Made by a program: the position numbers and the translations under genes | Notes under the pieces: generated by a model | The model's database searches: none | Told to the model about the DNA's origin: nothing | The model's input: only the letters and a program-made list of their open reading frames with translations | Source: a virus | Reading direction: 5' to 3' (one strand) | Length of the DNA stretch: 21,906 nt | Virus genome (UHGV): UHGV-1665900 | Part shown: one piece after another, positions 15,783 to 21,906 of the stretch | Position numbering within the stretch: the stretch's first letter is position 1 | Layout: each line of letters opens with the position of its first letter

Positions 15783-15802
15783 GGGGCGCGGTTCCGCGCC
15801 CC
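15783..15802 (-). promoter_or_regulatory. GC-rich stem-loop immediately 3' of the major capsid gene
   Basis: Perfect palindrome ggggcgcgg-tt-ccgcgcccc; no U-tract follows on the coding strand. Confidence 0.45.
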
Positions 15803-15809
15803 TGAGTGA

Positions 15810-17015
15810 TTACGCCGCTGCAATCTTCAGCAGTTTGATGGCCTGCGAATCGACCAGCATCCCGCCGGTGCGCTTGGTGGTATAAAAACCGACAAACGGT
15901 TTATTGGTGTACGGGTCACGCAGAATGCGGGTGCCGATACGGTCAACGATGGTGTAACCCCGTTTGAAGTTACCAAATGCAATGGCTTTCGCATCAGCGG
16001 CGATATCCGGCATCTGTTCGTTTTCAGCGATACCGTAACCCGCCAGAGAGGACGGCTGCCCCAGTTCCAGCCCCGGACGCCACAGATAGTTACCCTCGGT
16101 GTCTTTCAGCAAACGGATGGCAAACAGGCTGTTGTTGTTCATCATGAACTTCGCGCCGGTGCGGTGTGCCTTTCGCAGCGTGTAAATCAGTTTGATAATG
16201 GCGTCTGCGGTCACCCCCGTCGCTTCGCCGGATACAATATGCTGAAGTTTGCCGAACGCCCGGACCTTATCGGTTTCATCGGTGGATTCATACGCCAGGA
16301 ACCCTTTCGGCTTCTTGGTACCATCGCCTGAGGTAAAGGCAATTTCTTCCTGTTCGGCAAATTCGGTTGCCAGCTCGCTGTTGATCCAGGCCTCCACGTT
16401 GAAGAAGGCATCGTCCAGCATTTTCTGGGTAGCCTGCGGGTTGCCGTAGATTTCCCCCATGAGAGGTTCAATCAGCTCCAGTCTGGAGGTGGCAGTCTGG
16501 GATCGCGTATCCGTTTCCCCCACCCATCCGGAAGCCGTACCGCCCAGATTCACCAGTTTTTTGTAGTCGGAACCGCCAACGGTGATCACCGTGGCTTCCT
16601 GACGCATCACCACTTCATCTTTCAGCAGGTTAAGAATGTTGCGATCCAGTTCTTCCGGCACGGCGTAGCCACCGTCTTCATTGGTGCCCACCTGCAATGC
16701 CTTACGCTCCAGATCGCGCAGACCGTCTTCACGGCCTTTACGCAGGAAGCCCACAAACGCCTCTTTATGCTCGGTGGCCAGTTTATTTTGCGCTCCACCT
16801 GCCGGACGTTTCAGCTCAAGCAGCTCTTTTTCAAGATCGCTTTTGAGGTTTTCCAGCTCGCTGAGTTTCCCGTTCAGGGTTTCCACCTGCCCGGCAAGTT
16901 TGCCTTTTTCCTGCTCAATCGCATCCACGCGCTTGTCGTTCTTTGCTTTGAAGTCGTCAAACTTCTGCTGCAGCTCCTGCGCGACCTGTTCGACATCTTT
17001 AATATCAACCGCCAT
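15810..17015 (-). CDS. major capsid protein, HK97 type, with coiled-coil N-terminal domain
   Basis: 401-aa ORF with AGGAG RBS; N-terminus ...VEQVAQELQQKFDDFKAKNDKRVDAIEQEKGKLAGQVETLNGKLSELENLKSDLEKELLELKRP; follows the protease gene. Confidence 0.85.
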   Translation of the reverse strand: MAVDIKDVEQVAQELQQKFDDFKAKNDKRVDAIEQEKGKLAGQVETLNGKLSELENLKSDLEKELLELKRPAGGAQNKLATEHKEAFVGFLRKGREDGLRDLERKALQVGTNEDGGYAVPEELDRNILNLLKDEVVMRQEATVITVGGSDYKKLVNLGGTASGWVGETDTRSQTATSRLELIEPLMGEIYGNPQATQKMLDDAFFNVEAWINSELATEFAEQEEIAFTSGDGTKKPKGFLAYESTDETDKVRAFGKLQHIVSGEATGVTADAIIKLIYTLRKAHRTGAKFMMNNNSLFAIRLLKDTEGNYLWRPGLELGQPSSLAGYGIAENEQMPDIAADAKAIAFGNFKRGYTIVDRIGTRILRDPYTNKPFVGFYTTKRTGGMLVDSQAIKLLKIAAA

Positions 17016-19092: not shown

Positions 19093-20826
19093 TTAAAGCG
19101 AGCGGATCCCATAGGACTCAATGTGGTCAGACAGCGTGTCTTCTTTCTCGTACAGCATGGCTCTGCCAACCGCCATAATCAGCGCAACTGCACCATCGAT
19201 TTTGTTTTCCGCCTGCTCTTTGACGGGCTTCACCACATCATCGTTACCCGGAATGGTTTTGCCGACCACGTTGCCGATACACCAGGTCATGATGGGATTA
19301 CCATCATGATGAAAGCGCCCCGATTCAATTGCCGCTTCCAGCTCTTTCATCGGGTCGGACATGTTGGTGTAATTCTGAATGATAGTGATGGGGTTCAGGT
19401 CTTCATCAGCAAGGTCATGTGACAGCCCGGTCGCCCCGAAGGGGTCGATTGGTGACTCACTGACCGGGCTGATTTTGTTCGCCGCTTTGGCCTCCTCGAG
19501 GATGTAGCGATAATCCACTTCCGCACCATCGGTAACGGTCAGAACGCCCATTTCCACCCATTTCTGAAAGCGTTCGGCTGTCCGTCGATCTTCATTTTTC
19601 TCGACGCTGTACACCGTGTCATACGGTACCCAGAAACGCGGGGCCACACTGTAGTAATGCGTTTTACCGTCAATCTCGCGGGTATAAAGTCGCGCCATGC
19701 TGTTCATATCCAGCTTACGCGCCAGGTCAAAGGCCAGAATGCACGGCTGCCCCTCGAACTGCTCAAGGGTCAGTGATTTATCCTCGCAGCTCTGCCAGCT
19801 TACCAGGTTGAAATACGCCGAACGCGCCGACACCCAGATATTGAGGTGTTTTGTTTTAAAGACGTTTGCCAGACGGGCGTTATTTTTCGCACGCTGCTGC
19901 TGACTTAACAAAAATTCGCGATAAACCGACACGCCAATATTTGGATTGGCTTTTTCCAGCACCTGCGGGTCGGTCCAGTCGTCACCTTCATCAACGGTAT
20001 AGATGATCCCGAACAGTTCATCGTTAGGCACCGAGCCGTTGAGCATCTCGATGACTTCCCGCCGTTTGTCGTAGCACGGCCCCTCAATGTTGTACCCGGC
20101 GGTGGTGATGGCCCACATCAGTGGCTGACGTCGCGCCCCCATCCCGGTAAGCATTGTGGTATAAAGCGCATCGGTGGCATGCTCGTGATATTCATCCACC
20201 ACCGCACAGTGGGGTGATGAACCATCACCGGGGTTACCGATCAGCGGTTCAAAACGCGCACCATCCTCCGGACGGTTCATGTTTGAGGCGTTAACCTCAA
20301 TCCCGAACGCTTCCGTCAGCATGGGTGTGCGTTTACACATCAGTCTTGCCGGACGAAAGACTTCCCACGCCTGTTTCTCCGTCGTGGCACCGGAATACAC
20401 TTCCGCGCCGAACTCGTTATCACAGGCAAAACAATACAGGGCGACACCGGCAGAGATTGCCGATTTGCCGTTCTTACGGGGGATTTCGGTATACACCTCA
20501 CGGAAGCGGCGCAGCCGGGAGCCTTTATTGACCCAGCCAAACGCGCAGCAGATCACAAAGAGCTGCCACGGCTCCAGCGTGATAGGCATCCTCTTGAATG
20601 CCCACTCACCCTTGGTGTGCGGCAACAGCTGAATAAATTTGGCGGCCCGTTCAGCCAGGTCCTTGTCGAAGCGGTAACGAAACGACTTACTTTTTTCCGC
20701 CATCAGGTCATCAAGATGGCGCTGGCAGGCCTGAATCACAAACTGGCAGGCCACAATCTTTCCGCGCACGACATCACGGGCATACTGATTGGCTGCATTT
20801 ACGTTGGGGTAAGATTTCCGGCTCAT
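19093..20826 (-). CDS. terminase large subunit
   Basis: 577-aa ORF with a Walker-A-like motif PRKNGKS, located between the small terminase and portal genes. Confidence 0.9.
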
Positions 20827-20839
20827 GATTCGATGATTT

Positions 20840-21325
20840 TCAGATTGTCAGAAACGGGTTAGTGGCTTTCTTCTTCCCCGCCAGGCCAATCAGACGCTGG
20901 CGGCTGCTGGGGTCGAGTCCGAGCATTGCCCCCGTGCTGCTCATCTCGGACTCCTGTTCTTTTTTGGCGGTCAGCTCCGGATTTTTGACCATGCCGCCCA
21001 TTGCACCGGTGATGGTGTTGCCCTGTCTGGCAATATTTTTCACGGCACGTCGCCAGAATTCATAGGCCACACACCACCGCTCAAGTACCGCCAGGTCAGT
21101 CACGCACAGCAGGCCCTGACCGCAGAGTTCTTTGGTTGTCAGTTGCCACATGATCGTGGCGAGAGGGAGATCTTCTTCAGCGAACCACTCCGGTGGCTCA
21201 ACACCTTTGATGGGCGTAAAAACAGGTTCATCTTTATTCAGGGCTCGCTTGCCGGGGTTTCCGGCCAGCGCCTTGCGCGCCGTTGGCTTGGGGCGACGCC
21301 CGGAACGCCCCGCCGTTCCAGCCAT
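20840..21325 (-). CDS. terminase small subunit
   Basis: Basic N-terminus, directly upstream of the large terminase. Preferred start is ATG at 21325 ([11 protein letters not shown]) with AGGAG 8 nt upstream; the ORF-track start at 21334 is a GTG with no spacing to that RBS. Confidence 0.8.
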
Positions 21326-21375
21326 ATGCGGCACTCCTGGTTAAATTTCATTTTTCGCGGGTATAAAAAAACGAT

Positions 21376-21424
21376 GGGGCGGGCAGTCCGGAAGACGTCA
21401 GGTCACAGGGATTTGACCCGCCCC
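21376..21424. other. GC-rich inverted repeat between the HNH and small terminase genes; candidate packaging (cos) region or terminator
   Basis: ggggcggg (21376..21383) pairs with cccgcccc (21417..21424). On the minus strand it is followed by atcgttttttta. Confidence 0.4.
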
Positions 21425-21450
21425 TCCCCTCTGTCAGTGGGAACTGATTC

Positions 21451-21801
21451 TTACTTCAGCCGTTCACGGGCCGTCTTCGCCTTATGACACGGCCAGCACA
21501 GGCTCTGCAGATTACTGTCGGCATCAGAGCCGCCATACGCTTTAGGAATGATGTGGTCAACGGTTTTCGCCTCACGCACCACACCAGCACGCAGACATAG
21601 CTGACACAGGCCTTTGTCACGCTTCAGGACACGCACGCGGATAACATCCCACTTCGAACCATAACCGCGCTGATGACGAGATTGTCCTGGCTTGTATTGC
21701 TTCCAGCCTTCGCTTTTATGGCTTTCGCAGTAGCCTGACGGGTCCGTGGTTGTAGAGCGGCAGCCGCGAACACGGCAGGCTTTTGGGATTCTAGGGGGCA
21801 T
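21451..21801 (-). CDS. HNH endonuclease (terminase-associated)
   Basis: 116-aa ORF with CxxC...CxxC and H-N-H motifs (CQLCLRAG...VDHIIPKAYGGSDADSNLQSLCWPCHKAKT), immediately upstream of the terminase genes. No RBS is visible. Confidence 0.85.
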   Translation of the reverse strand: MPPRIPKACRVRGCRSTTTDPSGYCESHKSEGWKQYKPGQSRHQRGYGSKWDVIRVRVLKRDKGLCQLCLRAGVVREAKTVDHIIPKAYGGSDADSNLQSLCWPCHKAKTARERLK

Positions 21802-21906
21802 ATAAAAAATTTATAATAAGTAAAATAATAAAGAAAAATACTCAAAGGCAATTATCTTGACTCAAATACAAATCTAGAAGAGATGAGCTTATCAAGCATT
21901 TTCATA

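Follow-up and report, generated by a model that had tools for sequence, protein, structure and literature searches.

We analysed a 21,906-nt stretch of the virus genome UHGV-1665900 (hereafter the window, meaning this whole stretch), the end of which, at position 21906, falls within the prophage. At the right end of the window, an HNH endonuclease gene, a gap, a small terminase gene and a large terminase gene follow one another in this order on the minus strand, which is the coding strand here:

21451–21801, minus strand: HNH endonuclease gene (open reading frame of 116 amino acids with an N-terminal zinc ribbon and an HNH domain; Pfam PF01844, E = 3.6e-15)
20840–21325, minus strand: small terminase gene terS of the P27 family (Pfam PF05119, Terminase_4/P27, E = 2.6e-21)
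19093–20826, minus strand: large terminase gene terL (Pfam PF03354 and PF20441; ATPase and nuclease domains)

Pfam agrees with the original prediction that the gap is flanked by an HNH gene (PF01844, 21801..21451) and a small terminase gene (PF05119), whereas the size of 116 bp given for the gap probably needs correction. The open reading frame listed for terS begins at GTG 21334, which overlaps an AGGAG ribosome-binding site (21338–21334). Homologues and annotated relatives begin at ATG 21325 (MAGTAGRSG...), which on this comparison is more likely to be the start than GTG 21334, so that the gap more likely spans 125 bp (21326–21450). Among solved structures, the HNH protein is best matched by the GVE2 HNH protein (5h0m, E = 8.9e-13), and judged by homology it would be the accessory nuclease of the packaging machine; the same kind of sequence comparison returned no solved structure for TerS. 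The TerS stop codon (TGA, 20842–20840) lies 13 nt ahead of the terL ATG (20826), whereas terS and terL overlap by 4 nt in annotated relatives; the TerS C terminus is thus slightly shorter here. On the other side of the HNH gene, the AT-rich segment 21802–21906 corresponds to the end of a 555-nt hypothetical open reading frame that, in a close Escherichia coli relative, lies between Rz1 and HNH. Shigella phage SfV differs from the window in lacking this reading frame, its HNH gene lying 26 nt after Rz1; the 555-nt frame may be a moron-type insertion.

The gap had attracted attention because of an 8-bp G/C inverted repeat with a 33-nt spacer and a T-run after it on the coding strand, and a repeat search returned exactly that arrangement. 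The arms, GGGGCGGG at 21376–21383 and CCCGCCCC at 21417–21424, are complementary at 8/8 positions; on the coding strand the order is GGGGCGGG-N33-CCCGCCCC-ATCG-TTTTTTT, with the T7 run (21365–21371) 4 nt past the stem, and the gap reads ...GAGGGGAGGGGCGGGTCAAATCCCTGTGACCTGACGTCTTCCGGACTGCCCGCCCCATCGTTTTTTTATACCCGCGAAAAATGAAATTTAACCAGGAGTGCCGCATATG. A perfect 8-nt inverted repeat with a spacer of 3–60 nt also arose in 1,754 of 20,000 dinucleotide-preserving shuffles of the gap (8.8%), and the whole window contains 40 such 8-nt repeats, compared with 22 ± 6 in shuffles. The repeat alone is therefore statistically unremarkable, and it is homology and conservation, not symmetry, that make the interval look functional. 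The window contains just one other 8-nt inverted repeat made entirely of G and C, GGGGCGCG/CGCGCCCC (15783–15802, 4-nt loop), which sits just past the stop codon of the major capsid gene (15810..17015, minus strand) with no clear T-run after it and may be a hairpin or attenuator following that gene.

Homology places the interval within a well-characterized group of phages. The last 1.2 kb of the window is 95–97.5% identical to Salmonella phage 118970_sal3 and to Shigella phages SfII, SfV, SfIV and SfI, and from terS to the tail genes (the morphogenesis module, about 17 kb) the window is 97–98% identical to SfII, SfI and SfV. The linear GenBank records of SfV, SfII, SfIV and SfI all start or stop within the HNH–terS gap. 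For SfI, end sequencing by run-off on virion DNA, compared with the prophage, revealed that 10 nt were absent, 5'-TGCCCGCCCC-3', and these were taken as cos (PMC3636060); a passage of the same paper describes the SfI cos as nearly identical to that of SfV (PMC3636060), and SfI, SfII, SfIV and SfV have been reported to have an identical cos site (PMC3851460). This 10-mer is present once in the window, as an exact match:

21376–21385, minus strand: cohesive-end sequence TGCCCGCCCC

Over the 130 nt around it, the window differs from the SfI junction, the ends of which were mapped by run-off, by four single bases (126/130 identical); two of these, at 21409 and 21375, belong to the cos core, and the family varies at both positions. 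SfV is 100% identical to the window over the 73 nt downstream of the start of its record. In the record of the Stx2e phage phiP27, a cos-site feature is placed on the aligned CGCCCGCCCC, which matches TGCCCGCCCC except at the first base. For Edwardsiella phage EPP-1, the last bases of the linear record are ...ACTGCCCGCCTC, which puts its end precisely on the aligned boundary, and the record begins again at the aligned +1; the SfI record likewise ends with the cohesive 10-mer. Given these matches and the shared register with phiP27 and HK97 (see below), the HNH–terS interval is very probably the cos site of a prophage, an integrated temperate myovirus resembling SfV, SfI and SfII, as had been proposed in predicting a packaging site between these two genes. 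The element is already known as the cos of SfV/SfI-type phages, which is HK97-like and HNH-dependent. Like the cos sites of SfI, SfV, SfII, SfIV and phiP27, that of the window lies between HNH and a P27-family terS, and it shares with them a G-box, the 33-nt spacing and a conserved block downstream; annotated relatives have the same HNH–cos–terS–terL order.

The match also gives the inverted repeat a different meaning, as TGCCCGCCCC (21385–21376) consists of the terS-proximal repeat arm (21376–21383) plus two bases. By alignment to SfI, one arm would itself be the cohesive end, and the cut would not fall within the spacer. During packaging, the terminase (TerS and TerL) together with the HNH protein would cut the concatemer at 21376–21385, leaving staggered ends with a 10-nt single strand, TGCCCGCCCC (21385–21376, coding strand). 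The predicted positions are between 21376 and 21375 for the coding-side cut (top strand) and between 21386 and 21385 for the bottom-strand nick. Because the 10 nt are absent from both outward SfI run-off reads, the ends would protrude at their 3' side; by analogy with this 10-nt gap and with the HK97 register, the single-stranded TGCCCGCCCC is most probably a 3' overhang.

That the site is used in this particular prophage is suggested by its 97–98% identity to SfII, SfI and SfV. An inactive relic, that is, a cos by descent in a defective prophage that never uses it in this host, is unlikely. The regulatory, replication and lysis regions lie outside the view offered by the window, which stops within the prophage at 21906, and the terS stop 13 nt before terL, in place of the overlap of relatives, would fit such a relic. 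Against it, all packaging, head and tail reading frames in the window are open, the roughly 17 kb of 97–98% identity is to plaque-forming phages, and the cos core departs from that of SfI at only two positions, both family-variable. A related helper phage can, moreover, use a cos in trans.

We then mapped conservation across relatives of what is very probably an SfV/SfI-type cos. Alignment-based searching of genome contigs, with each species represented by a single genome, yielded 62 loci whose TerS homologues range from 98% to 30% in protein identity. They belong to Enterobacterales, Xenorhabdus, Gilliamella, Morganella, Comamonas and others and comprise 56 distinct sequences; viral contigs gave only loci that were 98–99% identical, too alike for measuring conservation. 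Roughly 95 nt upstream of terS align nearly gap-free across the family, and the information profile of the 56 distinct relatives resolves three conserved modules, namely an upstream box, the cut region and a downstream block. The elements other than the cohesive end itself are as follows:

21410–21429, minus strand: upstream box GGGGAGGGGCGGGTCAAATC (G-box and TCAAATC), conserved in the 56 relatives and containing the HNH-proximal repeat arm (21417–21424)
21390–21409, minus strand: spacer that is variable in sequence but constant in length (20 nt); its columns carry little information, and insertions or deletions are very rare in the family
21386–21389, minus strand: GGAC before the overhang, which with the next two bases gives AC/TG (predicted bottom-strand nick, 21386/21385)
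21341–21369, minus strand: downstream block TTTTTATACCCGCGAAAAATGAAATTTAA, +7 to +35 from the cut, A/T-tract-rich and near 2 bits per column

In the cut region, GAC/YGCC.CC (21389–21376; the slash marks the predicted cut), the left overhang edge AC/YG is almost invariant (A in 53, C in 55, Y in 56 and G in 54 of the 56 relatives), whereas the right overhang edge is poorly conserved. Five variable bases separate this region from the downstream block, whose information content remains near 2 bits per column in Comamonas too, despite a TerS of only about 50% identity. HK97 TerS binds +15 to +29 downstream of the cut and recognizes an A-tract (PMC11331095); as the block occupies the equivalent place, we assign it by inference to the P27-family TerS, and it is likely, by this analogy, to be a cosB-like candidate binding site of that protein. 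The upstream box, similarly by analogy, may be recognized by TerL or HNH, or may act as a termination signal like lambda cosQ. The block contains five bases of the T7 run. The T-run that had been described is present on the coding strand, but it is part of a conserved block downstream of the cut and not the tail of a terminator. Around the cut, the family consensus is GAC-N11-GTC, and Xenorhabdus loci (L112–L134, alignment columns about 44–68) have a different, locally co-varying dyad flanking the overhang, exemplified by CCCCAAGG-GACTGCCA-CCTTGGGG in L122 and CCCAC...GTGGG in L124; in some lineages, the nick region may thus be a centre of two-fold symmetry.

The same set of relatives bears on whether the inverted repeat could itself be the signal, with a symmetric dimer or a cruciform on both arms defining cos, which we consider very improbable. 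The repeat is perfect, 8/8 and all G+C, in the window, SfV and SfI, and its arms are 41 bp apart from start to start, close to four helical turns. Among the 56 distinct relatives, however, complementarity is 8/8 in only 4 and 7/8 in 2, falling to 6/8 or less in the other 50; at three of the eight pairs, more than 60% of relatives have bases that do not pair, and the changes are uncompensated. Sliding the partner by one column leaves pairing almost as high (69.2%) as in register (70.1%). The repeat is also broken in satellite-like copies of the cos core (TGCCAGCCCC in L159; left arm GGGGGTAG in L160; described below), HK97 and Bacillus phage Gamma lack the same repeat, and, as noted above, chance produces one in 8.8% of gap shuffles. 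A G-rich box and a C-rich overhang account for the inverted repeat, whose symmetry is not conserved and which is probably an incidental by-product.

Least likely of all, and scarcely credible, is the intrinsic terminator that had been offered as the alternative to a packaging site, an RNA hairpin GGGGCGGG...CCCGCCCC followed by AUCG-U7 that would stop HNH transcripts before terS: the arms can pair in the window sequence, with U7 4 nt later, and the predicted RNA fold includes the 8-bp stem, but the fold is of ordinary energy (z = −1.36; equalled or bettered by 17 of 200 shuffles), pairing in the 56 relatives (70.1%) is no higher than in column shuffles (72.2%), covariation is below that of shuffles, RNAalifold returns 0 consensus pairs and Rfam no match. 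A terminator has a short-loop G+C stem directly before its U-run and pairing that is kept in relatives; here the stem encloses a 33-nt loop, 4 nt intervene before the U-run and pairing is not kept, and promoter and terminator scans of 20500–21906 found neither. Because TTTTT is still present in 43 of the 50 relatives in which complementarity has dropped to 6/8 or less, the T-run is conserved independently of the stem. Late transcription in lambdoid phages, furthermore, must pass through cos to reach the head genes from the lysis genes.

Returning to the cos site, we compared its modules with those of more distant phages. TerL is 26% identical to HK97 gp2 (E = 2e-29) and the HNH protein is 38% identical to HK97 gp74 (E = 4e-11), whereas TerS has no sequence similarity to HK97 gp1. 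In HK97, the cohesive ends protrude by 10 nt at the 3' side, and cleavage at cos is stimulated by gp74 (both PMC9410871, PMC11331095). An ungapped position-specific scoring matrix (PSSM) of the upstream half of the family site, from the G-box to the overhang, was used to scan the HK97 genome on both strands. It produced a single match, at 36.3 bits (next best −9.0; mean −74, s.d. 15), whose final position coincides with the terminal base of the record, where the right cohesive end of HK97 is known to lie. Aligning the interval with HK97-like cos regions had been suggested as a check on the original prediction, and this match puts the two in register. A matrix for the downstream block found no match at the HK97 cos. 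A resemblance between ACCCG plus a T-tract in HK97 and ACCCGCG plus an A-tract in the window was considered as homology and rejected, given that the downstream matrix misses the HK97 cos.

HK97 thus resembles the window in its HNH–cos–terS–terL order, a G-run, TCAAATC, the 31-nt distance to the overhang and GAC/CGCC; it differs in a TerS that is unrelated by sequence, in having no counterpart of the downstream block, in its overhang (CGCCGCCAAA) and in lacking the 8-bp inverted repeat. Of the features of the HK97 type, the window has the TerL, the cos-adjacent HNH and the cut-site register, and it does not have a gp1-type TerS with its +15 to +29 sequence.

Phage Gamma shows a similar pattern. 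Its record carries CGCCGCCCC at both ends, giving the junction GGGTAGGGGCGGGTCGAAAAACATTCAGGGCGGTCTGTCCGTAC/CGCCGCCCC (GGGTAGGGGCGGGTCGAAA-N-GTAC/CGCCGCCCC), which scores 25.5 bits against the family matrix (second best −2.3). Its TerS is annotated as P27 family (TIGR01558), and its nickase N.phiGamma is 35% identical to the HNH protein of the window (E = 3e-16). Against this likeness, and the junction in register, stand an end of 9 nt instead of 10, a different downstream block, a G-box that overlaps the HNH stop codon and the lack of the same repeat; BLASTP could not align the TerS proteins of Gamma and the window. In both Gamma and GVE2, which infect Gram-positive hosts, the G-box overlaps the HNH stop codon (GGG TAG GGG CGG), so that in these phages the upstream cos element is physically fused to the end of the HNH gene. 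GVE2 has a similar junction, but scores poorly against the ungapped matrix owing to a 1-nt length difference. The first overhang base lies 31 nt from the T of TCAAATC/TCGAAA in the family, HK97 and Gamma alike, and phi105 has TTAAATC 31 nt ahead of its annotated 7-nt cos. As the upstream box is common to HK97 and Gamma, it is likely to be read by the proteins they share, TerL and HNH. That the upstream matrix finds the HK97 cos and the downstream matrix misses it suggests that the upstream half is tied to TerL and HNH, and the downstream block to the type of TerS.

The cohesive ends of lambda are 5' overhangs of 12 nt; its cos works with gpNu1 as TerS, R sites and an IHF site, and no HNH protein is involved. 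The likeness of the cosQ–cosN–cosB arrangement to the window is one of functional analogy only: ahead of the terminase genes, a nicking region has an element on its upstream side and a region for TerS binding on its downstream side. There is no sequence relationship; here the end, as mapped in SfI, is 10 nt, TerS belongs to PF05119 and an HNH gene is present. The element in the window is not a lambda-type cos.

Conservation at the left edge of the overhang points to a possible division of labour between the nucleases. The cos-adjacent HNH enzymes of Gamma, GVE2, phi105 and other phages are strand-specific nickases that cut at CG/GT, which is AC^CG on the other strand (Xu and Gupta, PMC3592412), with AC^TG as a strong secondary nick site (PMC3592412). 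The HK97 and Gamma junctions both carry AC/CG, and in Gamma the nick site AC^CG is the left edge of the terminal repeat of the record. AC/YG falls exactly at the left overhang edge in the family, HK97 and Gamma, and with a 3' overhang it is the non-coding strand that must be cut there. In phi105, AC/CG is one base off the annotated overhang, which supports the idea of an HNH nick in part only. We tentatively suggest that AC/YG (21386/21385) may be the HNH nick on the non-coding strand, the HNH assignment being made by inference, and that TerL would cut the coding strand 10 nt downstream, at a place set by geometry and not by sequence. The poor conservation of the right overhang edge fits a coding-strand cut that is set by distance. 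Which nuclease cuts which strand is a question that papers from 2024–2026 still treat as open (PMC11331095, PMC12967558).

The HNH–terS region is common in E. coli, occurring in 1,223 of 5,426 complete genomes. A blastn search of the same 5,426 genomes with the gap matched 1,648 of them, including 1,082 with the full HNH–terS context, and about a third of the records sampled match the cos core only, with no gene under the match. The cos-core copies that we inspected align to window positions 21346–21433:

NZ_AP023433, 1792839–1803100 (L159/L161): cos-core copy
NZ_CP010200, about 3533500 (L160): cos-core copy
NZ_AP027704, about 71100 (L164): cos-core copy

These three cos-only islands are small, and the stretches read contain no HNH or terminase gene. 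One, of about 10 kb, lies between cspD and clpS and encodes an integrase, an Icd-like protein, a primase, an SSB, a protease–capsid fusion and a DUF1441 protein; the other two encode a PerC-family regulator, and one of them also a P4-family primase. Their cos cores are identical to the window at 72–86 of 89 positions and retain the G-box, and in two of the islands the repeat is disrupted. From their gene content, the islands look like phage satellites that carry the SfV-type cos of a helper, a principle already described for PICIs with a lambda-type cos (PMC6739421). Because they carry the cos core only, the islands delimit a self-contained signal of about 83–100 bp, roughly 21346–21428.

For the window itself, these results amount to the ordinary annotation of a known element. 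They fix the genome ends of a very common E. coli and Shigella prophage type and indicate cos rather than headful packaging. The conservation map separates, at base resolution, a module shared with HK97 and Gamma from one that is specific to the type of TerS; it gives a testable assignment of the HNH nick, and the satellite-like copies delimit the minimal signal. What is modestly new is the architecture that the site has in common with HK97 and Gamma, the coincidence of AC/YG with HNH nicking specificity and the copies in satellite-like islands. If the assignment of the AC/YG nick is true, each strand at the cos of HNH-dependent phages would be matched to the nuclease that cuts it. The G-box/TYAAATC at −31, AC/YG and a TerS-specific block would then form an ancient module extending from Gamma to HK97 and SfV, a tripartite module that the satellite-like islands of E. 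coli would copy whole in order to be packaged.
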